From an uncultured Spirochaetales bacterium (lineage in GTDB: Bacteria; UBP6; UBA1177; JAKLFG01), in NCBI GenBank assembly GCA_964412895.1, contig CAYPQK010000001.1, positions 5,041 through 69,040 on the forward strand: a DNA stretch of 64,000 nt, written 5' to 3'. The notes beneath the pieces are model-generated. The model was not told the origin of the DNA and ran no database searches. It was given only the letters and a program-made list of their open reading frames with translations. Shown here piece by piece: positions 8,508 to 58,151 of the stretch (positions are counted from its first letter, which is position 1; the number at the start of each line of letters is the position of its first letter). The translations under genes and the position numbers were made by a program.

Positions 8508-8576
8508 GCCCCGCTTCGTAGTCGTTCAGATAAAATTTTTAGCGGTCTGCACTACACGCCGGAAGATGTTTTGGCG

Positions 8577-8607: not shown

Positions 8608-8633
8608 CGAAAACGGCTTCGAGGAACTGACGA

Positions 8634-8951
8634 TTACAGTTCTTTCTTGAAGCTCGGGGTGGGACGGAAGCCGACGGTCTTGGAGGCCTTGATCTTGATC
8701 TCCTTGCCGGTCTGCGGGTTGCGGCCCATGCGCGCCTTGCGGTTCGACACCTTGAAGGTACCGATGCCGTTAAGGTTGAGCTTGTTCTCGGCCGAGATGG
8801 TGTCCTTCATGATCTGAACGAACACATCATACACCTTCTTGGTCTGCTCATTGGTCAGGTTCACATGCTTGGCAAGGCCGTCTTTCATGACCTTAAGGAA
8901 AGCAGTCTTCGTCTTCGCGACCATCGTCATCTTCTTCGCCATGATTTTCAC
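8634..8951 (-). CDS. HU/IHF family nucleoid-associated DNA-binding protein
   Basis: GIGTFKVSNRKARMGRNPQTGKEIKIKASK arm motif. GGGGAG RBS 8 nt upstream of the ATG at 8951. An AT-rich promoter region lies upstream. Confidence 0.85.
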   Translation of the reverse strand: MKIMAKKMTMVAKTKTAFLKVMKDGLAKHVNLTNEQTKKVYDVFVQIMKDTISAENKLNLNGIGTFKVSNRKARMGRNPQTGKEIKIKASKTVGFRPTPSFKKEL

Positions 8952-9237
8952 TCCCCAGTGAAAAGTTACTAAACAACACAGCCATTATTAATAAAGGAAA
9001 AAGCAAAGTCAACAAAAAAATGCAAAAAAAGTGAAAAAAGTTCTTTAATGTAGGGCGGTTCCCCGATTCGTATATTTTTTTGTAAGAAAAAACCTGCTAA
9101 AAATCGGCATAATTTGCCATTCGAAACCTTTTATCCGATTGTTTTCAGTAAGTTGTCAATAGCATTGTTTTGGGGAGGCCAAACTACCGGCCTTTCCAAG
9201 AGTGAAACATTGACCGCAGGGCTGATTTACGCCCTAT

Positions 9238-24962: not shown

Positions 24963-25007
24963 CACTCCATTCTATGGTTTTTTTACCAAACGAGGGGGAG
25001 AATGATC

Positions 25008-34450: not shown

Positions 34451-36052
34451 TTAGCCTTTGACCGGTTCTTTGGGGTTGACCCATTTCCGGAGGATGATCA
34501 TGCCGATGGGCGAGGTGACGGCGAGCGCCGCTATCCAGACCCACACCATCCGGTGGTTCGATACATCGCCCACCGCCTGCACCACCTGTCCCGCCTCGTT
34601 GAGGACCGCCTTGCCGTCGGGACCGATCTTATCCTGCACCGGGACATAATTCGCGAGCAGTTGTCCCGACATGAGGGCGACCAGCGGCTGTGAGATGAAC
34701 TTCGGGAGCATCGACAGGGTCATGTAGCTCGCCTCCTGTCCTTCGGGGGCGATGCGGGCGGTGTATTCCATCAGACGCGGCGACCAGATCGCCTCGCCGA
34801 CGGTGAACAGGCCGACGAATATCGTCAGAGCGATGTAGATGGCCAGCTTCCCCTCGCCGATGGCCGGGTCGAGTCCCAGCCACACCTGCCAGATGAGACG
34901 GCCGAACACCGTGTCGACCAGCGGTATGAAGAACCGTTCGGGAAGCGTCACGAGGAACACGGCGAAGGCCGAGACGAACGAGCCGAAGGTGATCATCAGG
35001 TAGGGACTCCAAGTACGGGTCGCCCACGCGATGAGCGGTACGAAGAAGATGACGATGACCGGGTTGAGCATCCCGTAGACACTGCCCACCTTTGCCCCCT
35101 CGCCCAGCACGCGGATGCCGTATTTGGGGAAGGTGTAGTGGAAGTGGAAGAAGACATAGTTGACCCCGAGCAGTATCGTGAGGAGCAGCATGAATTTCCA
35201 GAAGGCGGGCTGTTTCATGACATCGACAAAGATGCGGTAGGCGTCGGTAAAGGCGTCGCGCACCGTTTTCCCGAGCGCCGGGAGGAAGGCCCCCTCGCTC
35301 TTTTTGGGCGGCGTTATCTCGAGCCGGCCATTGTCGTGCAGGTTGATGCCGTCGCGCAAAAGCGCGATGAATATCATCGCCGGTATCGACATGAAGAAGG
35401 CGACGAGCATGATGAAGCGGTAGGTCGACATGGTGCCCAGCAGCGGGACCACCGTGGTGCCGTATTCGCCCAGAGAGTTGCGGATGTAGTCGAACATCCA
35501 GCCGCCGACGGCGAAGCCGACATTCATCAGGGTATAGAACATCGCGAAGCCCATCGCCGAGGTGTCGGACTTGGTGTAGCGCTTGATGGCGACGGTGATG
35601 ACCGGCGACAGGAAGGCGACCGACACCGCCTGCACCGCGAAACCGAAAAGAATAAGCGTGTAAATATTGGTCGAGACGGCGAAAACCAGACGCGAGGCGA
35701 TGGCGAGCACCGTCCCGATGACGAGCACCCGTTTGACCCCCACCGCGTCGACGAGCGCGCCGACCCCGAACATGAGCACCGTGTAGGAGACATTCCACCC
35801 GCCGACCACCTGACTGGCGGCGATATCGGACATCCCGACATCGCTCGATAAGAAAAGGGTGAGCGTCGAAAGCATCAGCGACCACGCGACGAACTCGGTC
35901 ACCTGCGAAATGGAGACGAACCATATCTCGCGCGGAGAATCCTTAAGCCCCCGGCCGTACTGATAAATGATGAAGACCAAGTACCCGGCGGCGGCGGCCA
36001 GCACCGGATAGAGGAAATAATAGATCCAGCTGATATCGCGTTCGGGGATCAT
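34451..36052 (-). CDS. MFS-type transporter (POT/peptide-transporter-like)
   Basis: 12 or more TM helices. ATG at 36052 with a GGAG RBS. Confidence 0.75.
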   Translation of the reverse strand: MIPERDISWIYYFLYPVLAAAAGYLVFIIYQYGRGLKDSPREIWFVSISQVTEFVAWSLMLSTLTLFLSSDVGMSDIAASQVVGGWNVSYTVLMFGVGALVDAVGVKRVLVIGTVLAIASRLVFAVSTNIYTLILFGFAVQAVSVAFLSPVITVAIKRYTKSDTSAMGFAMFYTLMNVGFAVGGWMFDYIRNSLGEYGTTVVPLLGTMSTYRFIMLVAFFMSIPAMIFIALLRDGINLHDNGRLEITPPKKSEGAFLPALGKTVRDAFTDAYRIFVDVMKQPAFWKFMLLLTILLGVNYVFFHFHYTFPKYGIRVLGEGAKVGSVYGMLNPVIVIFFVPLIAWATRTWSPYLMITFGSFVSAFAVFLVTLPERFFIPLVDTVFGRLIWQVWLGLDPAIGEGKLAIYIALTIFVGLFTVGEAIWSPRLMEYTARIAPEGQEASYMTLSMLPKFISQPLVALMSGQLLANYVPVQDKIGPDGKAVLNEAGQVVQAVGDVSNHRMVWVWIAALAVTSPIGMIILRKWVNPKEPVKG

Positions 36053-36185
36053 GGGACGCTCCGTGAACCGTTGATGTCGCGCGATGCTAGCAGAAACGGC
36101 GGGACGAGTCAATGCGCCCAGATTTTATTTGAAAAACGGGACGCGGCGCATACAATGGGCCCCTGTTCTTGAGGGAGAGAACCGT

Positions 36186-36488
36186 ATGAACGATCATGTC
36201 TACCGGGTCCGTGAAGAGATCGCGTGGCGCAAGATGAAGGACGGGACGGTGACCATCGTTTCGCCGCTCGTCGAAAAGATCATATCCATCAACACGACGG
36301 CGGGGGTCATCTGGGAACTGCTCGACGGAAAGCGGACCGTCGCCGCGGTCATCGACAGCCTGTATGAAAAATTCAAAGGCGAAGAGGGGGTCGACCGGGC
36401 GGTGTTGGAACGCGATACCCATGAGATGTTACGCGACCTTATCGACCGTCAACTTGTCGAACAAATTGTTGACAATTCCGGCGGGTGA
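36186..36488 (+). CDS. PqqD-family protein (RiPP precursor peptide recognition element, RRE)
   Basis: GGGAGAG RBS. About 100 aa with PqqD-like core VSPLVEKIISINTTAGVIWELLDGKRTVAAVIDSL. First gene of a co-directional operon. Confidence 0.72.
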   Translation: MNDHVYRVREEIAWRKMKDGTVTIVSPLVEKIISINTTAGVIWELLDGKRTVAAVIDSLYEKFKGEEGVDRAVLERDTHEMLRDLIDRQLVEQIVDNSGG

Positions 36489-36539
36489 GGTTATCATCCG
36501 CAACCGGTTTCGATAGTGAACCATGAGTGGGAGTATAGC

Positions 36540-39500
36540 ATGAAGCGTATCGTTGTTGCTCTTATCTGGATTATGTTCCTGTCCCTCGTAGTAGGCGGCT
36601 GTTCCACCAAGGATCAGTGTAACGCCGACACCGACTGCAAGACGGGCTACGCCTGCGGTGACGACAAGAAGTGTCACGAGATACAGGTGGCGCTCCTCTT
36701 CCAGGACATCGCCGACGGTCAGACCCTCACGGTCGCCGACGATCTGGACAAGAGCGACGAGGCCATCCAGATCAATGTCACCGTTGCCGCGCAGGCGACG
36801 GCCGGCTCGATAAAGGACGGCACGGCGATCACCCTCGAGGTGAAGAGTTCCGCGGCCGAGACCTCCGACGGCGACACCGTGAACGGCACCGCCGCGACCG
36901 CGACGAAAAGCTATGCCGGGATACTCGTCAACGGCTTCGCCCGTTTTCTCAATATCCCCTTCGCGGAAGGACAGCATACCGTGACCGCCTATCTGACCCT
37001 GAGTCCCGCCATCAAGGTGACGGCGACCCTCACCGCCACCTATGAACAGACCGATACGCTGGTCATGCGCTACTATAAAGGCGGCACCACTCCGACGATG
37101 CTCGAAGGGGCGACGCTCGACGACAACGACGATCTCAACAAAGAGGCGGCGAATTTTCAGGTGAAAATGGAAGCGGTGACCACCGGGTATGCCGACGGGC
37201 AGGTGGTCGAGATATTCATCGAAGGCTACAGCATCACATGGGCGCCGGCCATCATAGAGGACGGCGTGGCGTCGTTCCCGTCGTTCGTCGTGCCGATATG
37301 GGCCGACATCGTGATGCGGGTGAAGGTGGCCGATGTCGAGGATACGCTCGCCTTCAGCGCCGTTTCGGCGGAGTCCTGCGGCTTTGCGCTCGATATCCAG
37401 AACAACGACCGGTTCGGCATGGCCGACGATACGAGTGCCGGACTCAGCGGTCTCCAGAAGATGCTCACCATCAGCGATGTCACCCTCTGCTCTACCGGTT
37501 CCGAGATAGAGATATACATCGACGGCGTGCCGGGCACCGACGAACCTGACGAAACGCTGACTCTCGGCGCGGCGTCGGTCCAGCAGTCGATCACCCTGCC
37601 CGAAAGCGCGAACCAGACCGATACCCGCACCGTCACGGTGGTGATGAAGGATGACGACAGCTCGGCGACCGGCCAGATGACCGTCACCGGTCTGTTCGTC
37701 GACATCACGGCGCCGACACTGAGTGTCACTGCGCCGCTTGATAACACCACCCTTACCCCGGTCGACGACACCAATACTTCGCTGGAAGGGGTCCAGATAG
37801 CGGTCACCGGTTCGGCATCCGACTCGTTGTCGGACGAGGTCACGGTCGAGGTGCGCGACGGCACGACGCTGTTGGGCGATACGACCGGTACCGGCGACTA
37901 CTCCGTGGACGATGTCTCCTTCACCGCGACCAACGAGGCGCTGACGCTCGCGGTCACCGCCCGCGACGCCATCGGCAACGAAACGGTCGTCGAGGTCCCG
38001 CTCAAGGTCTATGTGAACGATCCGGTGATAGCCTTCCAGACCATCTGCGCCCGGACCCCGGTCATGAATATGCAGCTTTCGTCGGCCGACGACGGCGACC
38101 AGCTCGCCGGCGGCGTCCAGTGCGCCGTCATCGTCCGGACCACCGACATCGAATCGGCCTCGACCGAGGTGTCGCTGAATATCAACGATGAAGATCCGAT
38201 AGTCGAAACGATAGGGACCGGCGGCCTCACGCTGTTCGACATGGTCACCCTGCCCGACGGCGAGGATTCGCTCACGGCCCGGGTCATGCATCTGGGGACC
38301 GCATACCAAACCGGGATCACCGTGCAGGTCGATGCGACCCTGCCGGTGGTGACGCTCACGCTCACCCCGACGGTCGACGGCGGGTTCGCGCAGTCGGTCG
38401 ACGCCGACTTCGCCTTCTCGTGCAGCGAAGCCGATTGCGAATACAGCTACCGTATCGACAGCGGAGCTTTGTCGGCCTACGCGACGACCGCCACCGCCGA
38501 ATACACCGCGCTGGCCGAAGGGCTTCATACCTTCGCCGTTCAGGCCCGCGACCCGTTCGGGAATGTCGGCGATCTGACCGTCTTCAACTGGACGATCGAT
38601 CACACGGCGCCCGCCGCCCCGACGGTGACCGGAGTAACGCCGACCAACGATACGACCCCCGAATGGTCGTGGAACACCCCGACCGGCACGGTCGAATTCC
38701 GTTACAGCACCGACCAGACGAACTGGACGACGACCGCCGTCACCGCCTTCACCCCGGCCCCGGCGCTCGCCGAGGGCGACCAGATACTCTATGTGCAGGG
38801 CCGTGACGCCGCCGGCAACTGGTCGGCGAGCGGATCGTTCACCATCACCATAGACACCACCGCCCTTTCCGCCCCGGTCGTGAGCGGCACCACGCCGACC
38901 AACGACACCACCCCCAAATGGTCGTGGGACGCGATAACCGACGCGGTCGAATATCGCTACAGTTACACCGACGGCTCCGGCTGGACGACGACCGCCGACA
39001 ACTTCTTCATTCCGGTCACGGCGCTCACCGCGGGCGACCACACCCTCTTCGTTCAGGCCCGCGACGCGGCGGAGAACTGGTCCGACAGCGGCTGGTTCAC
39101 CATCACCATAGACCTCACCGCTCCCGCCGCCCCGGAGGTGCTCGGCACCACGCCGACCAACGACACCACGCCGAACTGGTCGTGGATACCGGTCGCCGAC
39201 GCGGTCAACTACCGCTACAGCTACGATGAGATGACTTGGACCGAAACCGTCGATACGACCTTCACCCCGACCACGCAGCTCGCCGCGGGGACTTATACCC
39301 TTTTCGTTCAGGCGCAGGATGCCGCCGGCAACTGGTCGCTTTCGGGATCGAAGGAGGTTGTGATCGACCTGTCGACGCCCAATGCGCCGGTGGTTACCGG
39401 CGTAACGCCGACCACCGATACGACGCCGACCTGGTCATGGGGCGCGGTGACCGACGCGGTCGAATACCGCTACAGTTACACCGACGGCTCCGGCTGGGCG

Positions 39501-42500
39501 ACGACGACCGCTCTTTCCTTCACGCCGTCCGCGGCGCTCGCCGAGGGCTTTGTCACGCTCTTTGTGCAGGCCCGCAACGGCGTCGGCACTTGGTCGGGCA
39601 GCGGGCTTTTCACCATCGAGATAGATATCACCGCCCCGGCGGCGCCGACGGTGACCGGCATAACGCCCACCAGCAACACCCAGCCGACTTGGTCGTGGGA
39701 CACCCCGACCGACGCGGTCGAGTTCCGTTACAGCTACGACGAATCTTCGTGGACCGTTACGACGGCCAATTCTTTTACCCCGGGCAGTGCGCTGATCGAC
39801 GACGCCTATACCCTTTATGTCCAAGCCCGCGACGCGGTCGGCAATTGGTCGACGAGCGGATCGTTCGAGATCGTGGTGGACACCGAGGCGCCGGTCGCGC
39901 CGACGGTGACCGGTACCACGCCGACCAACGACACGACGCCAACTTGGTCGTGGAATACCCCGGTCGGCGCGGTCAACTTCCGCTACAGCTACACCGATGG
40001 ATCGGGCTGGACCGAAACAACCGGCACCAGCTACACCGCCGCCCCGGCCCTTACCGCCGGTACCTACACGCTCTATGTGCAGGCCGCCGACGCTACCGGT
40101 AACTGGTCGACGAGCGGCAGTTTCGCCATCACGATAGACACCACCGCGCCGACGCTGGTTATCGGTGCGCCGTCGGCGACCGTTGCGAAGAACGGGACCG
40201 ATGTGACCTATACCGTCACTTACTCCGGCGCCGACACCGTGACGCTGGCGAACGGCAACATCACGCTCAACGCGACCGGCGGCGCCTCGGGCTCCGTCGC
40301 AGTGACCGGCACCGGCACGGTGACCCGCACCGTGACGATATCGAACCTGACCGGGAACGGCACGCTCGGCATCAGCATCGCGGCCGGAACGGCGAGCGAC
40401 ACGGCGGGGAACACCGCCCTCGCGGCCGGTCCGTCGGCCACCTTCACGGTCGATAACACCGCGCCGACCGTGGTCATCGATCCGGTCAATGCCTGCACCC
40501 GCCGGACGACCGGCACGATCTCGTTCACCGTGACCGGCGCGACCACCACCACCTGCCGGTTCGACACCCCCGCCGGGCTCGGCACACCGGGCGCCTGCGG
40601 CGGCTCCTACGGATATACCCTCGTCGATGGCGACGGCACCTATACCCTCACCGTCACGGCGACCGACGATGCCGGCAACAGCGGCTCGGACGATGCCTTC
40701 TTCTCGCTCAACACCACCACGCCGACCGTCCAGTGGTTCCTGCCGGCCAGCGGCACCAGCTACAAGGCCGGTTCTGCGGTGCCGAGTTTCGTCTACCGCA
40801 CCAAGAACCTCGAGGCGGGCGAAATGGTCGAGATCATAGATGCTGACACCGGACTTGCCTTGGCCAGCGGGATCACCGCCGGATCGCTCTGCAACGCGAC
40901 CGAGGATGTCTCGATACCGCTCGATCTGCCCGACAAGTGCGGCACCTACAAACTCTACGCCAAGGTCAACGACGGCGTCGACTCCGTTGATCGCTACACC
41001 GATAATCTTACGGCACTTCCGGCGACCCAGCGTACCTACACCTTCGACCGCGACGAGCCGGTCATCTCCTCCTTCGTGGTGAATAACGACGCCGACAGCA
41101 ACAATGTCCTCATCTCGACCGAGGATGCCGACGGCATCGCGGGCAACGGGATGCAGGCCGATATCACCATCACGGTACAGGACGCCATCGACATCGGCCG
41201 CACCGTGACGCTCCGCAACAAGACGACCGGCAACACCTACACCGCGACGGTCGTGGGCGATAAAACCGCCACCTTCACCGGCATCACGATACCGGAAGGG
41301 ATCAACTCCTTCGGCGCGACGCTGGTCGACTGCGGCGGCAACACCTCCGCCGAGAGCGCGAAGACCATCACCGTCGATACCACCCCGCCGAGCGTCCTGT
41401 TCCAAGGCCCGACCGGCGTGACGCCGGGCCATCCGCTCTGGCTCACCTCGCGCGATGGCACCGTGGTCGGCGACGAACTGATCGGACAGGAGCTGAAGTT
41501 CAAGATAACGGGCGACTGGGATAACGCCACCCCGGTGGTCAAGCATTTCGTGTACGACTATGCCGATGCGCCCGTGGGTGCGGCCCATACCTATACCCTC
41601 GGCGAAATGGACATCGTCGGCACCGAGGTGAGCATCGACCTCGACGGCTCGGACGATCCCGCCGCGCCGCTCGCCTACAACAAACACAAGTTCGAGATCA
41701 CCGTCGAGGACGCGAACGGCAACATCCGCGTCGCCTCGCGCACCTACGAGGGCGACCCCAAGATCCCGAACGCCGTCATTTCCTATCCGACCGACGAACT
41801 GGTACTCGATGTCACAAAAGATGAGGACGCGGTCGCGTCGGGCGTCCAGTTCACGCTGCACCTCGATCTGACCAAGCTCGCCACCCCGACCGGCACCGAC
41901 TCGACCATCGATATCCTCGCGATACCGATAACGGCGCTCGGCGGCACCGAGGATGGTACCCGCAGCCGCAAATCGTGGAACGGTTTCATCGCCGACACCG
42001 ACGGCGCCGCTCAGACCTTCCCGAACGACGGCACCTTCCTGCGGCTCGGTGACGGCTTCTGGCGCCTGACGGTCAAGGTGACCGACGACCACCAGAATGT
42101 CTACGACACCGCTCTCCTGCCGGTCGCTCAACAGATCGATGTCGATGTGGTGACCGATGTTGCCTCTTCGTCGCTCTATCTCAGTAACGATAAACTCATC
42201 AACGGTACCCAGACCGCCCCGACATGGCTCAACAGCAACGACGGCGGTCCCACCTACGATCTGTATGTCGAGACCGATTCCCCGAACGGCACGAACAACG
42301 CCTGCATAAATGTCAACGCCGGAGGCGACATCTGCGCTGATGTGGACGCCGGCCGTGCCGAATTCACCGCGGTGGCGCTCACCACCGGCGGGGTCGAGAA
42401 CACCATCGTGTTGACGGTCAACAACGGCGTTGCGGTCGCGACCGACACCTACTATGTCCGCGCCGACAACACCGATCCGACGCTCGATCCGGCGACCGAT

Positions 42501-44597
42501 GTCAATCCGGAGCCCTATGTCCACGGCGCCGGTATCTGGGAGATCGGCTACGGTTATGACGACGACATCGACCATGACACCACCGCGATACTCGAACTCG
42601 ACGGCGCCTCGGTGAACCGGCTCATCTTCGTCATCGGCAACATCGAGGATGTGGCGGGCTACACGACCCACGGGACCGTCGTCCTGACCCCGGTCGACGC
42701 GATCGGCGGGACCACCACCGTCAATATCGCCGAGGACGGCGCCGACATGATGGCCGAATTCACGAACCTCACCTTCGAGGACAGCGTCATCGGCGGTCAG
42801 ACCGACATCGAGATGCTGGTGACGATAACCGAACAGCCCTCCGGCAACACCTACACCAAAACGATCTTCGTCCATGTCAATCTGGAGAAACCCGAAGGTA
42901 TCACCCCGACCGTGACCACCGATCCGGCCCGCGGCGAATCTTTCGTTCAGTGGAATGCCGTCGTCGGCAACAATTCGGCCTACGCCGGTGCGTTCCAGAA
43001 CCGCGTGTACGAATATCAGGTGAAGTATGAACAGTATGGCGGCGCCTGTTCGCTCGATGACAGCGAAAGTGCGTTCGACACCGGCGTCGCGATCACTCCG
43101 CTGGCCGACTTCTCGGTGGCCGATCCGTCGCTCAACGGCGATGATTTCGTCGCGCCCAAAGCGGCGGGCGAAGCGCAGAACTACATGTTCTACCTAAAGA
43201 AACGGTCGAATATCGCCCTCACCCAGACCGCCGACATCCACCGGAACGGCGATCCCTACTGCTTCGCGGTCCGCGCCAGCGACGGCATCTATGCGCAGGA
43301 CGGCACGATACTTGTGACAAATACCTCGCCCATCTTGTCTACCAATGTTGTGGATAAGGGAGCGATACAGTTGACCTCTAATGAGCTGATAGCAACGGCC
43401 GCGGGTGCCCATTCAACCATGAATATCAAGAATATGGGCGACATCAACGGCGATACCAAGACCGATTTTGTCATTTCCGATTCGGGTCGGCAGAAAGCGT
43501 ATGTGTTCATCAGCAACGCGGTAGGCGCTCCGACAAAACTGGAACTGGTCAATCCGGTGGATGTCGGTATCACCTCTTTCGGGTATCGTCTCGCCCTCGC
43601 CGACCTTAATGGTGATGGATTCACGGATGTTCTGGTAAGCGATGTCGGCACGAAGAGCATCCATATTTATTATGGTATAGCCAATTCGGTCAATACCGCT
43701 CGCGGCGATAAGATCACCTTTGTCGATACCATATCCGACCTTTCTGGTATCGGCGATTTCAATGGCGACGGATGTCATGATCTTGTTGTCGGGCAGGCAT
43801 CGTATGACGATCCGGGGAATGCGGCCCCCGGCGACCAGACGGGGCGGGCTTTCGTGGTTTATGGTGACGACAAAGGCGCCGCGGGAAAGACCTGCATCGG
43901 CGATTATACTACGCAGGTCGGCGTCTCTTATCTCGGTTCAGCCGCCGGCGAACGGTTCGGATACAATGTCCGGAAAATCGGGAACATCAAGAACGAAATG
44001 AATGGCACCGTGCCCTACGGTTGTTTTGTCGGCGGACATTATGACAATGTCAATCCGGCATCCGCCAAGATCACTAAGGCCAAAGTGTTCTATGGTTCCG
44101 CTGCTCCGGTCGGCGGCAATATCACCTCCTATGATGTCACCGTTAACGGTCTTGCTCAACTTCGCACCCTCTTCTTCGGGAAACTCAACGGTGACGATTT
44201 CTCCGATTTCGGCATCATTGACAGCGGTAAGATAAAATTCTTCTACGGGTCGGCCGCCGGTACCGTTTTCCCGGGCGTATGGACCGAAGGGACCAATCAG
44301 ATCACCCGTAGCGACATCATGGATGAAGTGGCGGGCGTCGAAAGCGGCGTGTGGGGATTGGGCAGTTCCGGATATGCCGAAGATATCAACGACGATGGGC
44401 TGACCGATTTCTTCATCAACGGAGAAAAGGATCAGTATATGTATAGCGGGATGGGCACCTTCTTTACGATGCACCCCGCTCTCTATATGGGTCTTCCCAT
44501 AGGGGCAGGCAGTTCACAGTCGACGATCCTTTCCTACGGACTGGTGGTGTGTAACCGCAACACCGATGCCGGTAATTGTATGTTGTATTATCGTTAA
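36540..44597 (+). CDS. Giant (2693 aa) surface adhesin-like lipoprotein with tandem Ig-like repeats and C-terminal FG-GAP/VCBS repeats
   Basis: GGGAG RBS. Signal plus lipobox VGGC. Six tandem repeats of about 85 aa (TPTNDTTPxWSW...YRYSxxDxxxW...). C-terminal GDxNGDGxxD integrin-alpha-like repeats. Confidence 0.85.
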   Translation: MKRIVVALIWIMFLSLVVGGCSTKDQCNADTDCKTGYACGDDKKCHEIQVALLFQDIADGQTLTVADDLDKSDEAIQINVTVAAQATAGSIKDGTAITLEVKSSAAETSDGDTVNGTAATATKSYAGILVNGFARFLNIPFAEGQHTVTAYLTLSPAIKVTATLTATYEQTDTLVMRYYKGGTTPTMLEGATLDDNDDLNKEAANFQVKMEAVTTGYADGQVVEIFIEGYSITWAPAIIEDGVASFPSFVVPIWADIVMRVKVADVEDTLAFSAVSAESCGFALDIQNNDRFGMADDTSAGLSGLQKMLTISDVTLCSTGSEIEIYIDGVPGTDEPDETLTLGAASVQQSITLPESANQTDTRTVTVVMKDDDSSATGQMTVTGLFVDITAPTLSVTAPLDNTTLTPVDDTNTSLEGVQIAVTGSASDSLSDEVTVEVRDGTTLLGDTTGTGDYSVDDVSFTATNEALTLAVTARDAIGNETVVEVPLKVYVNDPVIAFQTICARTPVMNMQLSSADDGDQLAGGVQCAVIVRTTDIESASTEVSLNINDEDPIVETIGTGGLTLFDMVTLPDGEDSLTARVMHLGTAYQTGITVQVDATLPVVTLTLTPTVDGGFAQSVDADFAFSCSEADCEYSYRIDSGALSAYATTATAEYTALAEGLHTFAVQARDPFGNVGDLTVFNWTIDHTAPAAPTVTGVTPTNDTTPEWSWNTPTGTVEFRYSTDQTNWTTTAVTAFTPAPALAEGDQILYVQGRDAAGNWSASGSFTITIDTTALSAPVVSGTTPTNDTTPKWSWDAITDAVEYRYSYTDGSGWTTTADNFFIPVTALTAGDHTLFVQARDAAENWSDSGWFTITIDLTAPAAPEVLGTTPTNDTTPNWSWIPVADAVNYRYSYDEMTWTETVDTTFTPTTQLAAGTYTLFVQAQDAAGNWSLSGSKEVVIDLSTPNAPVVTGVTPTTDTTPTWSWGAVTDAVEYRYSYTDGSGWATTTALSFTPSAALAEGFVTLFVQARNGVGTWSGSGLFTIEIDITAPAAPTVTGITPTSNTQPTWSWDTPTDAVEFRYSYDESSWTVTTANSFTPGSALIDDAYTLYVQARDAVGNWSTSGSFEIVVDTEAPVAPTVTGTTPTNDTTPTWSWNTPVGAVNFRYSYTDGSGWTETTGTSYTAAPALTAGTYTLYVQAADATGNWSTSGSFAITIDTTAPTLVIGAPSATVAKNGTDVTYTVTYSGADTVTLANGNITLNATGGASGSVAVTGTGTVTRTVTISNLTGNGTLGISIAAGTASDTAGNTALAAGPSATFTVDNTAPTVVIDPVNACTRRTTGTISFTVTGATTTTCRFDTPAGLGTPGACGGSYGYTLVDGDGTYTLTVTATDDAGNSGSDDAFFSLNTTTPTVQWFLPASGTSYKAGSAVPSFVYRTKNLEAGEMVEIIDADTGLALASGITAGSLCNATEDVSIPLDLPDKCGTYKLYAKVNDGVDSVDRYTDNLTALPATQRTYTFDRDEPVISSFVVNNDADSNNVLISTEDADGIAGNGMQADITITVQDAIDIGRTVTLRNKTTGNTYTATVVGDKTATFTGITIPEGINSFGATLVDCGGNTSAESAKTITVDTTPPSVLFQGPTGVTPGHPLWLTSRDGTVVGDELIGQELKFKITGDWDNATPVVKHFVYDYADAPVGAAHTYTLGEMDIVGTEVSIDLDGSDDPAAPLAYNKHKFEITVEDANGNIRVASRTYEGDPKIPNAVISYPTDELVLDVTKDEDAVASGVQFTLHLDLTKLATPTGTDSTIDILAIPITALGGTEDGTRSRKSWNGFIADTDGAAQTFPNDGTFLRLGDGFWRLTVKVTDDHQNVYDTALLPVAQQIDVDVVTDVASSSLYLSNDKLINGTQTAPTWLNSNDGGPTYDLYVETDSPNGTNNACINVNAGGDICADVDAGRAEFTAVALTTGGVENTIVLTVNNGVAVATDTYYVRADNTDPTLDPATDVNPEPYVHGAGIWEIGYGYDDDIDHDTTAILELDGASVNRLIFVIGNIEDVAGYTTHGTVVLTPVDAIGGTTTVNIAEDGADMMAEFTNLTFEDSVIGGQTDIEMLVTITEQPSGNTYTKTIFVHVNLEKPEGITPTVTTDPARGESFVQWNAVVGNNSAYAGAFQNRVYEYQVKYEQYGGACSLDDSESAFDTGVAITPLADFSVADPSLNGDDFVAPKAAGEAQNYMFYLKKRSNIALTQTADIHRNGDPYCFAVRASDGIYAQDGTILVTNTSPILSTNVVDKGAIQLTSNELIATAAGAHSTMNIKNMGDINGDTKTDFVISDSGRQKAYVFISNAVGAPTKLELVNPVDVGITSFGYRLALADLNGDGFTDVLVSDVGTKSIHIYYGIANSVNTARGDKITFVDTISDLSGIGDFNGDGCHDLVVGQASYDDPGNAAPGDQTGRAFVVYGDDKGAAGKTCIGDYTTQVGVSYLGSAAGERFGYNVRKIGNIKNEMNGTVPYGCFVGGHYDNVNPASAKITKAKVFYGSAAPVGGNITSYDVTVNGLAQLRTLFFGKLNGDDFSDFGIIDSGKIKFFYGSAAGTVFPGVWTEGTNQITRSDIMDEVAGVESGVWGLGSSGYAEDINDDGLTDFFINGEKDQYMYSGMGTFFTMHPALYMGLPIGAGSSQSTILSYGLVVCNRNTDAGNCMLYYR
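38600..40140 (+). repeat. Six tandem repeats of about 255 bp (85 aa) inside the giant adhesin gene
   Basis: Repeated protein motif APAAPTVTG(V/T)TPTNDTTPxWSW...(E/N)(F/Y)RYS...FTP..AL..G.YTL(F/Y)VQA(R/Q)DA(A/V)GNWS.SGSF.I.ID. Confidence 0.8.
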
Positions 44598-44611
44598 ATC
44601 GGGAGGAACTG

Positions 44612-44740
44612 ATGTATAAGAAGCCTTGCGTCCTGGAAGAAAAGACCATAGAAAAAAGGATCCTTTTCGCCTGCACCCTTGATACGCCGGAAGACGAGTT
44701 CTGCGTAGACAGCATTTCTACCGCCGGCAGTCAAGGCTGA
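44612..44740 (+). CDS. Small ORF (42 aa) encoding a candidate RiPP precursor peptide (not in the ORF track)
   Basis: GGGAGGAA RBS 5 nt upstream of the ATG. Sequence MYKKPCVLEEKTIEKRILFACTLDTPEDEFCVDSISTAGSQG with 3 Cys. Locally lower GC. Sits 15 nt after the giant gene and 19 nt before the peptidase gene. Confidence 0.5.
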   Translation: MYKKPCVLEEKTIEKRILFACTLDTPEDEFCVDSISTAGSQG

Positions 44741-44759
44741 ACGACTCAGCTTTTCTTCT

Positions 44760-45203
44760 ATGAATAATTTTTCCATCGACGAACTCATTGCAACCTTCTC
44801 TACCGATGGCGGTCTCGGCGTGGTGCTGTTCGGCGCACAGAACTCCATGCTGCCTTCCATTCGCCCCGGAGAACTCATCCACATCGCGCCGGTGGATCGC
44901 GACCGTCTGCGTTCCGGCGATGTGGTGGTCTTCCGCACCGGCGAAGTGCTCGTGGCGCACCGGCTCGTCTGGAAACGCGGCTTCGTCGCGCGGACCAAGG
45001 GCGACAACAATCCCTATTGCGACCCAGCCATACCGGTGTTCGACATCGTCGGCGTGGTCGAAGGAAAGAAGTCGCGGTGGGCGTTCTGCTACTATCTCGT
45101 GCGGAACCGGCTTCGCCACTACACGCCCCGTCCGGCGCGACTGCTGTTCTCGGAGTTGAAGAATAAACTGCTCGGCCGGAAACGGTGGATGGAACACCTA
45201 TGA
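44760..45203 (+). CDS. Clan SF (signal-peptidase I / LexA-like S24/S26) serine peptidase-like protein
   Basis: Motifs GAQNSMLPSIRPGELI, GDVVVFRTGEVLVAHRLVWKRG and VARTKGDNNP resemble the Ser-Lys dyad boxes of S24/S26 peptidases. Its 3' end overlaps the rSAM gene. Confidence 0.55.
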   Translation: MNNFSIDELIATFSTDGGLGVVLFGAQNSMLPSIRPGELIHIAPVDRDRLRSGDVVVFRTGEVLVAHRLVWKRGFVARTKGDNNPYCDPAIPVFDIVGVVEGKKSRWAFCYYLVRNRLRHYTPRPARLLFSELKNKLLGRKRWMEHL

Positions 45204-46213
45204 CCATCAAACGCCCCGGCATCCTTTTCGAGGTGGCGGACCGCTGCGATGCGCGGTGTCTGCACTGTTACCAGCCGCGGGAATGCGCTCACCGGCTCAT
45301 GTCGCTCGCCGAGATCGAACGGGTGCTCGACATCCTTGCCGATAACGAATATCTCGATGTCACCTTCAGCGGCTACGAGCCGTTCACCAATCCCGACCTG
45401 TTCAAGATCATCGAGGCGGCCCGCAAGCGCCGGTTCTTCGTCAATCTCAAGACCAACGGTCTCCATCTCACCGCCGACAATGTCGCGCGGCTGAAGGCGC
45501 TCCATATCGGCACGGTCCATGTCTCCCTCTATTCGCCCGACCGCGATGAACACGACCGCGCCGCCGGTGTCCCCGGGGCGTACGACCGTATCATGACCGG
45601 CCTCGACCTTCTGCGTGAGGCAGGCATAAAGGCCATGCTTGCCGCGCCGCTTTTGCATCCGCTCCCCGATCTCGCGCGGCTCACCGCCTTTGCCAAAGAG
45701 CGCGATCTGCAGCTGGTCATCGACTACGGTTTGTTCAGTTCGTTCGACAAACGGCCCGAAGTCGAGGCGGTGAAGCTGACCGAAGCGGAGCTTGAGACGG
45801 CGATCCGTTTTCAGTACGGCATAGAAGGCGACGAGATGAATTTCTATGCGCCGAAGGAGGCTTCGTTCCTTTGCCACTACGGTGATCCTTCCACTTTCCG
45901 CATAGACTGCGCGGGCGGCATTTATGCCTGCGGCAAATGCACCGTGCCGCTCGGCAACCTGCTGACCGACGATTTTGCCGCGTTGGTGCAGAGGGCGGCG
46001 GCGGAACGGCCGCGCATCATCCGCGACCGGGAATGCAACGACTGCGACCTGTTCCCGTACTGTAGCCCCTGTCCCGCCGAAGCGTTATTGGACGGCGGCT
46101 TTCTCTGCGGCTGTTCGGCGGTACGCAAACGGATCGCCCAGATCAAGCGCCGGATCGGCAGCGCAGGAACAAAAAGGACCGGCGATGCCGCGGAGGGTCC
46201 GTGTCAGGTTTGA
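45185..46213 (+). CDS. Radical SAM enzyme with C-terminal SPASM domain (peptide-modifying maturase-like)
   Basis: CxxxCxxC motif in RCDARCLHCY. A C-terminal Cys cluster (CAGGIYACGKC...CNDCDLFPYCSPC) is typical of SPASM/twitch domains. Confidence 0.85.
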   Translation: MDGTPMTIKRPGILFEVADRCDARCLHCYQPRECAHRLMSLAEIERVLDILADNEYLDVTFSGYEPFTNPDLFKIIEAARKRRFFVNLKTNGLHLTADNVARLKALHIGTVHVSLYSPDRDEHDRAAGVPGAYDRIMTGLDLLREAGIKAMLAAPLLHPLPDLARLTAFAKERDLQLVIDYGLFSSFDKRPEVEAVKLTEAELETAIRFQYGIEGDEMNFYAPKEASFLCHYGDPSTFRIDCAGGIYACGKCTVPLGNLLTDDFAALVQRAAAERPRIIRDRECNDCDLFPYCSPCPAEALLDGGFLCGCSAVRKRIAQIKRRIGSAGTKRTGDAAEGPCQV

Positions 46214-46953
46214 AGACCCGCTGTTTTTCGATAGCAGGCTATCTCCTGAATATATCGTATGCCCCCCGGATGATCTTTCCCGCGCCGTTCCGGTTGTTTG
46301 AGACCGCAACACCGAATGAACTTCTTCTTCCTATAACCACCCAAGAACATTCCGATATCAACGACATTCGACGAGTCAACGGCGCATGGCGGATATCACG
46401 GCACCGGCCGTACCTCTATCTGCCCAAAGTGCTGGCCTACGAAGGCTTCGAGCGCGAGGAACTGTTCCTGCTCGTCCATTCCTGCTTTCTTGTTGATCGA
46501 GGGGGATGGAGCCATCTCTTTCTCGCCACTTCGGGGACCGGGAAGAGTACGTTGGCCCGCAAGATGCGCGGCCTCATGACCGGCGGCAACGACGAGACCA
46601 ATGTCCTCTGCCGTCGCGCCGGTATTCTTTACGGTTATTCGACCCCCTTCTACACGATATCGAAGCTCAAGAACGCCGTCATCTCCAATATCTCCGCGCC
46701 GCTCAAACGGGTCTATCTCCTGCGCAAGACCGAAGAGCCGTCGCGTATCGGTGAGCCGGTCGCCGGAGATGTACTGTGGCGCTATCTGGTCGAGGGACAG
46801 GTGAGCACACCGTACAGTAAACGCGAATATTTTTCCGCCTACCACCGCATGGTGAACGACCTCTGCGACTGCCACCCCGTCCATCCTTTCCATCACAACT
46901 TGACCGATCCGCCCGAACGGATCGCGGCGCTCCTCGAAAGCGGCGACCGGTAA
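46201..46953 (+). CDS. HPr kinase/phosphorylase-like (HprK C-terminal domain) P-loop protein
   Basis: P-loop LATSGTGKSTLA in an HprK-like context. GTG start overlapping the rSAM stop. Exact start uncertain (alternative ATG at 46270). Confidence 0.55.
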   Translation: MSGLKTRCFSIAGYLLNISYAPRMIFPAPFRLFETATPNELLLPITTQEHSDINDIRRVNGAWRISRHRPYLYLPKVLAYEGFEREELFLLVHSCFLVDRGGWSHLFLATSGTGKSTLARKMRGLMTGGNDETNVLCRRAGILYGYSTPFYTISKLKNAVISNISAPLKRVYLLRKTEEPSRIGEPVAGDVLWRYLVEGQVSTPYSKREYFSAYHRMVNDLCDCHPVHPFHHNLTDPPERIAALLESGDR

Positions 46954-47132: not shown

Positions 47133-47161
47133 TTGACAAAGTTCCCTTACGAGGATATGCT
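47133..47161 (+). promoter_or_regulatory. Sigma70-like promoter upstream of the second small peptide ORF
   Basis: TTGACA, 17 nt spacer, TATGCT. Confidence 0.45.
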
Positions 47162-47202: not shown

Positions 47203-47352
47203 ATGATGAATTCTCGCGGCTACGAAAAACCGGTTATAATTGAAGAACTCGTACTGGAAAAAGAACTTCTCTTTGCCTGCCTTTTTCATAACCGGAATCA
47301 GTGCGAACCTATCTGCCGCAACCCCGGGCAAAGCGCTGGGGAGCCTTGTTGA
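47203..47352 (+). CDS. Small ORF (49 aa), second candidate precursor peptide paralogous to 44612..44740 (not in the ORF track)
   Basis: MMNSRGYEKPVIIEELVLEKELLFACLFHNRNQCEPICRNPGQSAGEPC. Shares Y-x-K-P-x-[VI]-[LI]-E-E-x-x-[IL]-E-K-x-[IL]-L-F-A-C with the first peptide. 4 Cys. Lies in an AT-rich intergenic region. No clear SD. Confidence 0.42.
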   Translation: MMNSRGYEKPVIIEELVLEKELLFACLFHNRNQCEPICRNPGQSAGEPC

Positions 47353-49213: not shown

Positions 49214-49341
49214 CCGTTTCACGCTCTTCGTAAGCGCAATCCTACAAAAGAAAAGGCGTCGTCCTACAGAAAAGCGACCGTGAAAAAGATATTCTGTTCC
49301 CAGTGAGGTGAATGGTCCGGGAATGGAAAATGGAGGTCGTC

Positions 49342-50850
49342 ATGAAAGGAATTGTTGGGCTTGGCGCATGGTTGATGGCGGTTATGTTCGTCTCCTCCTG
49401 TGGGGGCGAGGAGCCGGAGCAGGAGGTTTTCGTTTCGCTTTCCGGCCGCACCGCGACGGCGCTCGCCACGGTAAGCAATATCATAGAGGTCAATCAGAAA
49501 GCGGCCAACTTCGGCATTGCGGTCACCTCGGTGGGCGATGTGAACGGTGACGGTTATGGCGATGTGGCCGTCGGGGCCAATTTTTATGACAACGGGCAGA
49601 TCGACGAGGGGATGCTGTTCATCTATCACGGAACGGCGACCGGGATCAAGACCGCCTATGCCATACGGCTCGAATCGAATCAAAAGGATGCCCGTCTCGG
49701 CTGGTCGGTCGCCTCTGCGGGCGATGTGAACGGCGACGGCTACGGCGATATGATCGTCAGCGCGTACCGGTACGACAGCGGCCAGACCGACGAAGGAGTG
49801 GCGTTCGTATATCACGGTTCTGCGACCGGCATCGGTCCTGTCTACGCCCGACGGCTCGAAGTTGATCAGGCGAACGCCTCTTTCGGCATTTCGGTCGCGG
49901 CGGCGGGCGATGTGAACGGCGACGGCTACGGTGATGTGATCGTCGGTGCCTTCTTGTACGACAACGGACAGAACGACGAAGGGGCCGCCTTCATCTATCA
50001 CGGATCGGCGACCGGCATCGGTGCGCAGTATGCCCGGAGACTGGAAATGGATCAGGCGGGCGCGTGGTTCGGTTATTCGGTCGCGTCGACGGGTGATGTG
50101 AACGGCGACGGGTACGACGATGTGGTCGTCGGCGCTTTTCTGTACAACAACGGACAGAACGACGAAGGGGCCGCGTTCATCTATCATGGTTCGGCGACCG
50201 GCATCGGCACGACTGCGGACCGCAGGATCGAACCGGATCAGGCGGGCGCCTACTTCGGCTATTCGGTCGCGTCGGCGGGCGATGTGAACGGCGACGGCTT
50301 CGACGATGTGGTCGTCGGCGCTTATTTGTACGACCACGGACAGACCGACGAAGGAGCCGCTTTTATGTATCACGGCTCGGCGAATGGCTGCGGTACGGTA
50401 TACGACCGGATGATCGAACCGGATCAGGCGGGAGCGAATTTCGGCGCCGCGGTCGCGTCGGCGGGCGATGTGAACGGTGACGGGTACGGCGATGTGGTCG
50501 TCGGCGCCCGCTCGTATGACGGCAACAAGACCGACGAGGGGGCCGTTTTCATCTATCGCGGCTCGGCTAACGGCCTGAATGTAGCGACGAACCAGATGTT
50601 CGAATCGAATCAGGCGGATGCCTTTTTCGGCCGGTCGGTCGCGTCGGCGGGCGACATGAACGGCGACGGCTACGGCGATGTGCTGGTGGGGGCAAGTCTG
50701 TACGATAACGGCCAATATGACGAAGGCGCCGCGTTCTTCTATCACGGTTCGTCGTCCGGGCTCTGTATAGGCCGTTGCCCGGAAGATAGCGGCACTTCCA
50801 GCGAAACGACAACGGAACTCTCCTCCCCTCCCAAAAATAAGCGGCACTAA
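49342..50850 (+). CDS. FG-GAP repeat (integrin-alpha-like 7-bladed beta-propeller) lipoprotein
   Basis: GGAGG RBS. Signal plus lipobox VSSCG. Seven about 61-aa repeats with GDVNGDGYGDVxVGA...DEGAAFIYHGSATG. Confidence 0.8.
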   Translation: MKGIVGLGAWLMAVMFVSSCGGEEPEQEVFVSLSGRTATALATVSNIIEVNQKAANFGIAVTSVGDVNGDGYGDVAVGANFYDNGQIDEGMLFIYHGTATGIKTAYAIRLESNQKDARLGWSVASAGDVNGDGYGDMIVSAYRYDSGQTDEGVAFVYHGSATGIGPVYARRLEVDQANASFGISVAAAGDVNGDGYGDVIVGAFLYDNGQNDEGAAFIYHGSATGIGAQYARRLEMDQAGAWFGYSVASTGDVNGDGYDDVVVGAFLYNNGQNDEGAAFIYHGSATGIGTTADRRIEPDQAGAYFGYSVASAGDVNGDGFDDVVVGAYLYDHGQTDEGAAFMYHGSANGCGTVYDRMIEPDQAGANFGAAVASAGDVNGDGYGDVVVGARSYDGNKTDEGAVFIYRGSANGLNVATNQMFESNQADAFFGRSVASAGDMNGDGYGDVLVGASLYDNGQYDEGAAFFYHGSSSGLCIGRCPEDSGTSSETTTELSSPPKNKRH

Positions 50851-51561: not shown

Positions 51562-52434
51562 ATGAACCAGCTTAAAATATACACCGCACTGCGGGATGCG
51601 CAGTTCGAGAATCAGGTACATGCGCTCATCCACGCCAACGATCACGAGGCTCATCAGATACATCTCGACGACATCATCAACGATGTGCGGGCCTATGACG
51701 GCCTGTTCATCGTCGAGGAGAGTTATCACGGCATCCTTGAACTGATAGAGTTCCACAATTCCTGTAAATTCAATCTCTTGCCGGTCATCTTCGTGTTCGA
51801 TCCCAAATCGCCTGACAAAGAATGGGTGAACTCTGTTCGCTATCCCTATAAATACTTTGCCGTCGAGCACAAACTGTTGCCGCTCCTGTTCACCCGCATC
51901 GTCGCCCACATGGACGAACTGCGGCGCACCAAATTCAACGAATTCGTCCTTGAGCACCACAAACCGGTGCTGGAACCGTTCTTCAACGAGAAGCTCTCGT
52001 TCCGCGGGGCGTTGGGGCAGGCGCTCGCTCATCTGCTCGACTTCCTGTTCGCCGATAAGGGGTCCATCATGCTCCTCAACGACAAGGGGAATCTCGTCAT
52101 CGAGGCGTCGACCAAACCGCACCTCATCGGGCTGGAGGTGGTGCCCGATCCCAACTCGCCCGCGTGGAGCGTCATGGAAACGAAAAAGCCGTTGTTCGTC
52201 GAGGACATCTCGAAGGATCAGCGTTTCAAGAAGAAAAGCGACGGCTACAGCAAGGATTACTTTCTCATCGTCCCGATATTCTTGAACGGCGAGATCCACG
52301 GCGTGCTCAATCTCACCGACAAGATGGTGTCGCTCTTCTTCGACCGGAGCGACCTCCTGCGTGCCCGGAATTTTCTGCGGCTGTTGGAGCCGATGCTCGC
52401 CCTTCATAGCGGCATAGCGGTAGATATAACCTGA
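51562..52434 (+). CDS. GAF domain protein with degenerate N-terminal receiver-like region
   Basis: C-terminal GAF-like block GSIMLLNDKGNLVIEAS...PLFVEDISKDQRF...HGVLNLTDK. Confidence 0.6.
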   Translation: MNQLKIYTALRDAQFENQVHALIHANDHEAHQIHLDDIINDVRAYDGLFIVEESYHGILELIEFHNSCKFNLLPVIFVFDPKSPDKEWVNSVRYPYKYFAVEHKLLPLLFTRIVAHMDELRRTKFNEFVLEHHKPVLEPFFNEKLSFRGALGQALAHLLDFLFADKGSIMLLNDKGNLVIEASTKPHLIGLEVVPDPNSPAWSVMETKKPLFVEDISKDQRFKKKSDGYSKDYFLIVPIFLNGEIHGVLNLTDKMVSLFFDRSDLLRARNFLRLLEPMLALHSGIAVDIT

Positions 52435-52464
52435 TATCGTGGCCGTCTCTGGGGAGGGGCGTAG

Positions 52465-58148: not shown

Positions 58149-58151
58149 ATC

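Follow-up and report, generated by a model that had tools for sequence, protein, structure and literature searches.

Why should the gene for a giant surface protein lie among genes that appear to mature a small peptide? The question is raised by a 64,000-nt stretch of contig CAYPQK010000001.1, from an uncultured Spirochaetales bacterium, the whole of which we call the window. In it, a single open reading frame (ORF) of some 8 kb, encoding a giant lipoprotein, is preceded by a gene for a PqqD-family peptide chaperone and followed by genes for a short precursor peptide, a small S26-family peptidase, a radical S-adenosylmethionine (rSAM) maturase, and an ScmC-like P-loop protein. An initial annotation of this DNA had offered three roles for the giant: cargo of the adjoining peptide genes, partner of them, or a nested insertion. 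We find that the gene is real and kept by selection, that it encodes a giant lipoprotein of the cell surface, and that it is a core structural gene, not a passenger, of an uncharacterised cassette of the type that produces ribosomally synthesized peptides with post-translational modifications (RiPPs). The best explanation of the whole, which we hold with moderate confidence, is that the giant forms the core of this RiPP cassette and that the matured peptide acts with it.

Linkage of the giant gene to the peptide cassette

Members of the system were sought among GTDB species genomes with the C-terminal domain of the giant, among metagenomes with an alignment of the rSAM enzyme, and, with HMMER, among 1.84 billion representative proteins, and 13 lineages were compared (the window, L001, L004, L005, L007, L008, L013/L022, L015, L016, L020, L023, L099, and L100). 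In all 13, a gene for a leader-bearing peptide (Y-x-K-P-x-I-I-E-E...) begins 8–20 nt past the stop codon of the giant. The giants themselves range from 1,900 to 2,700 aa (genes of 5.8–8.1 kb), the GC content of the locus ranges from 37% to 62%, the flanking genes differ both upstream and downstream, and the genes that follow the giant and its peptide occur in at least three orders (peptidase-rSAM-ScmC, ScmC-rSAM-peptidase, or ScmC-rSAM). This constancy of giant-then-peptide, despite different flanks and a shuffled internal order, favours the partner among the three roles first proposed. The PqqD gene lies directly 5′ of the giant in six of the seven lineages in which the 5′ end of the giant is on the contig, L099 being the exception; the possibility that PqqD belongs to a different unit in relatives, which had been named as a ground for rejecting the association, found no support.

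Close homologues of the rSAM enzyme are rare (only about 10 among 5.8 billion sequences searched), and wherever the contig of such a homologue reaches upstream, a giant ORF stops just before a homologous peptide gene. The whole C-terminal domain of the giant, for its part, could be aligned in only five of the 1.84 billion representative proteins in an exhaustive HMMER search, and both new full-length giants (P0285 and P0371), when checked, had the same cassette around them. A word-index search with this domain returned one close partial relative and generic FG-GAP proteins; HMMER was needed to reach the remote giants. Pairwise identities of the giant C-terminal domain and of the rSAM enzyme correlate at r=0.94 over 36 pairs that are not independent of one another, and between subclades the giant domain, at 41–49% identity, is better conserved than the maturase, at 30–36%. 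The lineages include a divergent member, L015, from a metagenome-assembled genome (MAG) labelled Spirochaetales. By GroEL, the named relatives nearest to the host of the window are Geobacter, Geoalkalibacter, and Geothermobacter (Geobacter-like Desulfuromonadales), with no more than 70–72% identity, and unclassified 'bacterium' MAGs come closer, with 77–85%. Taken together, the conserved linkage suggests that the modified peptide and the giant work together.

One locus departs from the simple pattern. L020 (positions 3–8794) carries a divergent giant with its own peptide (MTVPYATPKIISE...), ScmC, and rSAM genes, beside a peptidase (81% identical), rSAM enzyme (84%), and ScmC (77%) of window type together with the second precursor, A2, described below. 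Its two maturase pairs, set against a single giant, point to an exchange of modules among the types of cassette.

The giant and the peptide could instead be functionally independent and held together by co-regulation, the giant being an ordinary biofilm or adhesion protein and the RiPP a separate signal or antimicrobial, both under shared cyclic di-GMP (c-di-GMP) or two-component control. We consider this possible but unlikely. Co-regulation would sit well with the genes for c-di-GMP or other signalling found in every genomic context (GAF, P-type-ATPase-like, histidine kinase, and GGDEF proteins in those of the window, L001, L015, and L023; PilZ proteins in those of L004, L006, L008, and L022), with the lack of an exporter or docking feature that ties the peptide to the giant, with the existence of related cassettes that have no giant, and with the link between SCIFF-type ranthipeptides and quorum sensing (PMC8326336). 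However, it does not predict that the peptide gene would keep its spacing of 8–20 nt in every lineage amid a reshuffling of the other genes, that giants orthologous to this one would occur with the cassette and nowhere else, or that each type of giant would be paired with its own type of peptide and rSAM enzyme.

Architecture of the giant lipoprotein

The giant is encoded on the forward strand by a frame that is open without interruption from a GTG at 36516 to 44597, in agreement with the single ORF of 8.06 kb described initially. The length then given, 2693 aa, is counted from this GTG, whereas the start given with it, 36540, yields 2685 aa; two starts had been mixed, a minor slip. The ATG at 36540 has GGGAG 8–12 nt 5′ of it, and the NCBI gene call (P0144) on the source contig, of 86,971 nt, is the same 2685-aa protein (36540..44597, +). 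An open frame of 2693 codons in DNA of 60% GC cannot have arisen by chance. Measured against two orthologues, the ratio of nonsynonymous to synonymous substitution rates (dN/dS) is about 0.25 overall, 0.23–0.37 in the repeats, and 0.13–0.19 in the C-terminal propeller, so the whole frame, repeats included, is under purifying selection.

The protein is predicted to consist of a lipid-anchored N-terminus, a stalk of about 2,200 residues that is immunoglobulin (Ig)-like wherever Pfam annotates it, a distal calcium-binding FG-GAP propeller of integrin-alpha-like type, and a two-Cys hairpin tail; it contains 26 Cys in all, and the full-length giant, searched against PDB sequences, matched none. The N-terminus, MKRIVVALIWIMFLSLVVGG followed by Cys, carries a lipobox that satisfies a PROSITE-PS51257-type pattern, as do those of all four other complete orthologues tested (L001, L004, L013, and L023). 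The signal peptide consists of MKR, 15 hydrophobic residues, and VGG before C21, with a Kyte-Doolittle maximum of 2.49 at residue 4, and is followed by a Cys-rich motif, C-x5-C-x5-C-x5-C-x5-C (signal peptide and motif together at 36540..36674, +), which these four orthologues also keep. By signal criteria the giant is thus a bacterial lipoprotein, as first annotated, with lipidation and cleavage predicted.

Within the stalk lie six tandem Ig-like repeats of 85 or 86 aa (38616..40151, +; aa 693–1204), matching Big_13 over six stretches (E=1e-33, 116 bits against a cut-off of 27) and Y_Y_Y (E=3e-25, 88 bits against 26.6), and preceded by a degenerate seventh copy (38409–38615, +; aa 624–692). 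The array is essentially the one placed earlier at 38600–40140. Its copies are 53–70% identical in amino acids and 61–76% in DNA, the longest exact word that they have in common is 30 nt, and Tandem Repeats Finder sees in the array only 2.4 copies at 76%. The comparison of copy number among relatives that had been recommended gives 2, 3, 5, 6, or 7 copies by repeat profile: 6 (plus 1 degenerate) in the window, 7 in L001, 5 (plus 1) in L004, 3 (plus 1) in L023, 3 in L022, and 2 in L013. The low-GC lineages L099 and L100 retain the window-type repeat only as degenerate traces and have other Ig-like units instead. The giants of L013 and L022 differ by one 85-aa unit, exactly, and are otherwise 100% identical; within L022 the duplicated copies share 98.4% of their DNA sequence. 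Either the unit was duplicated very recently or one of the assemblies has collapsed it. The expectation that such arrays are prone to recombination is therefore borne out among the relatives, but the window's own array looks stable.

These data also bear on whether the arrangement is an artefact or a recent accident: either the assembly is chimeric across the repeat array, or an insertion, mobile or recent, has divided an operon of PqqD, peptide, and rSAM genes. Three observations could be read in its favour: distant cassettes do have PqqD adjoining rSAM, one related assembly pair differs by one near-identical repeat unit, as just described, and GC content is somewhat higher inside the giant gene (0.65 against about 0.59). 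The last fits repeats rich in Thr, Ala, Pro, and Gly, and no transposase or repeat boundaries were seen at the locus. Since the repeats of the window are only 61–76% identical in DNA, their collapse is unlikely. Orthologues of the giant in other samples align collinearly along their entire length (74–76% identity), one of them is identical across all 8,040 nt in five separate assemblies, and the same architecture recurs in the 13 lineages. An independent Logan assembly from another run matches window positions 43641–45205, which span the 3′ end of the giant, the precursor A1, and the peptidase gene, with 0 mismatches. We regard an artefact or a recent insertion as essentially excluded.

The distal end of the giant (43407..44594, +) is predicted to be an integrin-alpha-like FG-GAP beta-propeller with calcium loops, and the initial description of the C-terminal 400 or so residues as FG-GAP/VCBS calcium-binding repeats holds. 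Pfam finds FG-GAP (E=2.5e-8) and FG-GAP_3 (E=3.5e-7) at aa 2301–2366, and calcium loops of the form D-x-N-x-D-x-x-x-D occur at aa 2301, 2355, 2406, and 2615, together with one variant loop; by its repeats and loops the region would belong to the integrin-alpha type. An AlphaFold model of the C-terminal 499 aa, computed from an alignment with only one close homologue, has a mean predicted local distance difference test score (pLDDT) of 59 and a predicted TM score (pTM) of 0.69, with the blades at residues 110–390 confident, and the best Foldseek matches of this modest-quality propeller model are to integrin alpha-V (E=1.6e-9, TM about 0.45). The protein ends in ...VVCNRNTDAGNCMLYYR just before its stop codon, a C-x8-C tail formed by Cys2671 and Cys2680 (nt 44550–44579). 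The Cys-containing tail noticed at the outset is kept in every giant orthologue found. We found no HemolysinCabind match in the giant, and no type I secretion genes among the neighbours scanned, that would point to RTX-type secretion.

The window is unusually rich in propeller proteins. Another FG-GAP protein, a 512-aa lipoprotein with lipobox VSSC and seven FG-GAP repeats (49312–50850, +), has on its flanks the genes of two LuxR-type response regulators and of a receiver-HisKA_3 kinase, and is 82–86% conserved in L001 and L020; its likeness to the propeller of the giant is at the generic FG-GAP level only (E about 1e-15 to 1e-17). An 822-aa protein (1175–3643, −) has Kelch-type beta-propeller motifs. 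It is also curious that a 'disintegrin-like' protein is encoded 10 kb from the integrin-like propellers: in this 741-aa secreted protein (25002–27227, +), Pfam Disintegrin (E=2.5e-20) picks out a Cys-rich repeat some 32 aa long, and the protein also has an InlB B-repeat and an acidic Thr/Asp-rich tail that ends in ...GCGCSVVF. The Disintegrin match may reflect just a CxxDxDC motif, which is present at the N-terminus of the giant too.

Maturation genes and a model for joint action

The chaperone encoded 5′ of the giant, of the kind that serves as a RiPP recognition element (RRE), is a 100-aa protein (36186..36488, +) that matches Pfam PqqD (E=4.8e-12, 46.5 bits against a cut-off of 23.4), with all NCBIfam PqqD-type models scoring under their cut-offs. 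On the 3′ side, the precursor peptide A1 (42 aa, MYKKPCVLEEKTIEKRILFACTLDTPEDEFCVDSISTAGSQG; 44612..44740, +), an ORF with homologues in relatives, begins 14 nt past the stop codon of the giant and has a ribosome-binding site, GGGAGG, 6 nt before its ATG. The next gene (44760..45203, +) encodes a 147-aa S24/S26-like serine peptidase, probably of S26B (SipW/SEC11) type, with the motifs SM-x-P (Ser), AHRLV (His), and KGDNN, an HMM match slightly under the cut-off (NCBIfam sigpep_I_arch, TIGR02228: E=1e-12, 48.1 bits against 51.85), and a weak match to SEC11A/C in the PDB (E about 3e-3). No transmembrane segment was found in this protein, which is a soluble S26 relative and not a canonical signal peptidase; we presume it to be the leader peptidase.

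The maturase (337 aa; 45200..46213, +) matches Pfam Radical_SAM (E=4e-23) and has a CX3CX2C core (C21, C25, and C28) that is invariant in 12 homologues, along with seven invariant C-terminal Cys in a SPASM-like arrangement (C230, C249, C284-x2-C287-x5-C293-x2-C296, and C310). The Pfam SPASM model does not match it and does match a homologue of 28–29% identity (P0011); exact-sequence look-ups of the protein with two alternative starts gave no match. The ScmC-like P-loop protein (46270..46953, +; its ORF reaches back to a GTG at 46201) carries a Walker A motif, SGTGKST, its orthologues have precomputed PF27840 matches, and its PDB matches are to P-loop and PEP-carboxykinase proteins only (E≥1e-3). 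A second precursor, A2 (49 aa, MMNSRGYEKPVIIEELVLEKELLFACLFHNRNQCEPICRNPGQSAGEPC; 47203..47352, +), is conserved among members of the window-type subclade, its gene lying either past ScmC or in the interval from rSAM to ScmC; it shares the leader motif of A1, has four Cys in its core, and is preceded by a promoter-like site, TTGACA-17-TATGCT, at 47133–47161. The common leader, Y-x-K-P-x-[IV]-[ILV]-E-E, persists into cassettes whose rSAM enzymes are 25–33% identical. Scans of six precursor peptides against NCBIfam at E≤10 assigned no family, and the named NCBIfam relatives (SynChlorMet, or SCM, GeoRSP, ACGX, PqqE, and others) all score far under their cut-offs: the cassette is RiPP-type and of an undescribed family.

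Two further features of this neighbourhood are worth recording. The end of the rSAM enzyme (...AAEGPCQV in the window, 46190–46213; EPCHF in relatives) echoes the ends of A2 precursors (GEPC, GQPC, and PWPCV; 47338–47352), an E/x-P-C C-terminal motif common to an enzyme and its presumed substrate. Farther 3′ of the cassette (51562–60260, +), a block of genes encodes a GAF protein (290 aa), a short P-type-ATPase-like membrane protein of 559 aa (about four of its segments hydrophobic), a PAS-type histidine kinase, and a GGDEF cyclase. The block occupies the same place in L001 and, at 40–55% identity, comes after the cassette in L015 too (7368–13081); in L023 (12235–16012) the ATPase-like and GGDEF genes are in place, the kinase has its match at another site and on the other strand, and no match to GAF turned up. 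The contexts of L004, L006, L008, and L022 have instead PilZ, a second rSAM gene, and a 675–680-aa protein without assignment. These genes may be part of the system.

How the genes are transcribed can be approached from their spacing. A promoter scan gave as its best match a sigma-70-type element, TTGACA-17 nt-TATCAT (36469..36497, +; 11 of 12 consensus positions), whose −35 box falls within the last codons of PqqD and whose −10 box falls in the 51-nt gap between PqqD and the giant. The window, L001, L004, and L013 have both hexamers and the distance between them unchanged, in a gap that otherwise varies, and the divergent L023 has TTGACA-17-TACTAT in their place. Because of this conserved promoter-like element, the giant probably heads its own transcriptional unit, and, because the gaps after it are 14 nt to A1 and then 19 nt, followed by overlaps, the peptide and the enzymes would be on its mRNA. 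The initial suggestion of co-transcription thus stands for the downstream peptide and maturation genes, and is to be modified for PqqD, since the giant would not simply ride on the PqqD transcript. Two other possibilities around A1 were dropped: a terminator-like hairpin over the stop codon of A1 (44733–44753) is not conserved in L001, L004, L005, or L013, and a fusion of the giant to A1 by read-through or frameshifting is contradicted by an offset of +2 in the window, L001, and L004 where L005 is in frame.

What the sequences themselves establish is the gene with its domains, the purifying selection on it, its conserved linkage, the conserved promoter motif, and the families of the enzymes. 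Beyond this we infer co-transcription, a cross-link chemistry, a cleavage site, an export route for the peptide, and a contact between peptide and giant, in a model that would run as follows. Transcription from the promoter at the PqqD/giant junction would yield one mRNA for the giant, the precursor 14 nt behind it, and the maturation genes. PqqD would bind the Y-x-K-P-x-I-I-E-E leader in the cytoplasm, the SPASM enzyme would cross-link the acid-rich C-x6-9-C core, most plausibly through a thioether, and the P-loop protein may supply an ATP-dependent step. The soluble S26 peptidase would then cut after L-F-A, leaving a core that starts with Cys; AXA-like sites precede the core Cys here and elsewhere (L-F-A in the window, A-L-A in distant cassettes, and S-Q-G in the L015 type). 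The giant would be exported through Sec, lipidated, and displayed at the surface, where the matured peptide would act with it, its likeliest role being that of a ligand for the propeller head or a small subunit within it. The giant is most likely a surface partner of the matured peptide. Its description as cargo lacks support, as there is no conserved transporter and the giant has its own Sec/lipoprotein signal; a major facilitator superfamily (MFS) transporter divergent from PqqD (34451–36112, −) occurs with the window and L001 types only, and is not in L004, L013, or L023, and hence does not qualify as an exporter conserved with the system. A more specific proposal, which we offer only tentatively and by analogy with QhpC (see below), is that the propeller at the tip of the giant requires the Cys-cross-linked peptide, as a ligand or a small subunit, and that the peptide completes or arms a surface adhesin or receptor borne on a 2,700-residue stalk.

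More distant cassettes illuminate the origin of the pairing. Relatives in which PqqD adjoins rSAM without a giant, which the initial annotation had proposed to look for, do exist, yet they lie outside the giant clade, in cassettes with rSAM enzymes of 22–39% identity (mostly 25–33%); in most of them ScmC, PqqD, and rSAM genes are contiguous. From this distribution, the giant was recruited once, at the base of its clade, and kept since. A nested insertion can thus be upheld only as an ancient recruitment, not as a recent or accidental event. Large secreted proteins recur in some distant cassettes: in L041, L044, and L052 an unrelated secreted protein of 600–830 aa lies directly 5′ of the precursor and peptidase genes, and in L025 a PQQ_2/CBM96 protein precedes the peptidase gene, no precursor having been found there. 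This theme is recurrent, not universal.

The secreted proteins of L041 (494–2800), L044 (1560–4241), and L052 (11116–13102) form a family of their own, with an N-terminal G-x-P-T-D-W-S-H-x-H-L-I-F-S motif and no Pfam or NCBIfam matches. Two of the three, those of L041 and L044, end in a C-x7-9-C-AVQASQ tail, and the precursors that follow read ...PYxKPxF..E..FETxALACGK...C...S and are accompanied by an S26-like peptidase.

Such tails invite another interpretation, that the giant is itself the substrate of the rSAM enzyme, its C-x8-C tail being cross-linked or modified in some other way in the cytoplasm before export and the small ORFs being accessory. The two-Cys tail is kept in every giant orthologue, the unrelated proteins of L041 and L044 end in a comparable Cys pair, and anaerobic sulfatase-maturating enzymes (anSMEs) provide a precedent for an rSAM/SPASM enzyme acting on whole secreted sulfatases (PMC8326336). 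However, the RRE-type leader sits on the small peptides, even in cassettes without a giant, the tail of the giant has no leader-like motif, the homologous secreted protein of L052 has no Cys pair, and a C-terminal disulfide hairpin would be ordinary for an exported beta-propeller in a protein with 26 Cys. We therefore think modification of the giant itself quite improbable.

Several points also weigh against a giant that acts together with the matured peptide. Conserved linkage alone is compatible with pure co-regulation. No exporter is conserved in the cassette, the maturation proteins all look cytoplasmic (PqqD, the rSAM/SPASM enzyme, the P-loop protein, and the S26 peptidase are without membrane segments), and the peptide would have no evident way to an extracytoplasmic propeller. 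Two low-GC members have no S26 peptidase nearby and one has no PqqD. The 31 more distant cassettes with rSAM and PqqD and/or ScmC have none of the giant's domain, and L027, L028, L031, and L034 have no large secreted protein next to the precursor. Finally, the AlphaFold model is poor over the last 100 residues (pLDDT below 50), leaving the tail unresolved in it.

Comparison with known systems

RiPP clusters are usually read as precursor, enzymes, transporter, and immunity genes, with free antibiotics, signals, or cofactors as products. Here, across very different base compositions, the most stably linked partner of the precursor peptide is the gene for a giant surface protein. Each part of the cassette is of a known kind, and the conserved pairing of giant and cassette is undescribed: neither NCBIfam nor the literature that could be searched yielded a giant FG-GAP lipoprotein paired with an rSAM/SPASM-PqqD-ScmC cassette. 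Should the linkage be functional, this would be a RiPP acting as one component of machinery at the cell surface, and it would give a testable handle on giant FG-GAP lipoproteins of uncultured sludge and digester bacteria that are now without function. Mining pipelines that cut clusters at large 'unrelated' ORFs would here split PqqD from its operon.

Among named families, those that score best with the PqqD, rSAM, and ScmC-like proteins of the window are the SCM and GeoRSP systems (TIGR04248–04251, TIGR04302/04303), which likewise combine a PqqD-family chaperone with an rSAM/SPASM enzyme, SCM having ScmC as well. The scores fall well below membership of either: for SCM, ScmC reaches 19.4 bits against a cut-off of 125, ScmD 23.5 against 100, ScmE 50.4 against 400, and ScmF 50.7 against 400; for GeoRSP, the rSAM enzyme reaches 68.4 against 400 and PqqD 27.5 against 100. 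SCM also differs in having two rSAM genes where the window has one, and to our knowledge neither definition includes a giant lipoprotein or an S26 peptidase. Sactipeptides and ranthipeptides of the SCIFF type share with the window a short leader-bearing precursor, a Cys core rich in Asp, Glu, and Thr, auxiliary-cluster Cys, and an RRE/PqqD (PMC8326336), and a thioether is the commonest outcome for rSAM/SPASM enzymes of this kind (PMC8326336). The precursors match no curated family, and the cross-link here is a predicted one. In known thioether-RiPP clusters one finds genes for transport and immunity, and no surface-protein gene of 8 kb.

The giant and the peptidase have parallels of their own. 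Giant adhesins of the LapA, SiiE, and RTX kinds resemble the giant in their long Ig-like arrays of variable repeat number, calcium motifs, nearby c-di-GMP genes, and distal ligand-binding heads; the giant differs in having an N-terminal lipobox anchor and no RTX or type I secretion signal, and its role in adhesion is a prediction. The predicted fold of the propeller resembles that of integrin alpha-V, and the window has no integrin beta-like partner. Dedicated S26 peptidases include SipW, of tapA-sipW-tasA, and SodX, a soluble maturation protease that removes the N-terminal leader of nickel superoxide dismutase. As in those systems, a small S26-family peptidase is encoded beside the protein or peptide that it would process. 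The peptidase of a distant cassette weakly matches the SodX model (E=9e-4); that of the window differs in scoring under every curated cut-off and in having no membrane anchor, and its site, L-F-A before Cys, is predicted from sequence.

The closest working precedent for a partnership of peptide and giant is, by analogy, quinohemoprotein amine dehydrogenase: an rSAM enzyme cross-links its QhpC peptide in the cytoplasm, a protease shortens it, and it then joins a periplasmic complex as one of the subunits (PMC7876137; PMC8326336). There, as in the window, genes for large extracytoplasmic proteins have next to them the gene for a small, leader-bearing peptide in which Cys, Asp, and Glu abound; the rSAM/SPASM enzyme QhpD makes the cross-links, the dedicated serine protease QhpE trims in the cytoplasm, and QhpC works only in the large complex (PMC7876137). 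The qhp system differs in having an ABC exporter (QhpF), a flavoprotein (QhpG), a subtilisin-type protease, and large subunits (QhpA/B) that are enzymes of about 37–60 kDa, not a lipoprotein of 2,685 aa, whereas the cassette of the window has no haem or quinone signature, encodes a separate PqqD, an ScmC-like P-loop protein, and an S26 peptidase, and does not belong to the qhp family at the sequence level. If the peptide nevertheless serves the giant as a subunit or ligand, much as QhpC serves its enzyme, the recurrence, in distant cassettes with unrelated secreted proteins, of a large secreted protein, a precursor, and an S26 peptidase in neighbouring genes would signal that protein-partnered RiPPs are a general class that has gone unrecognised.

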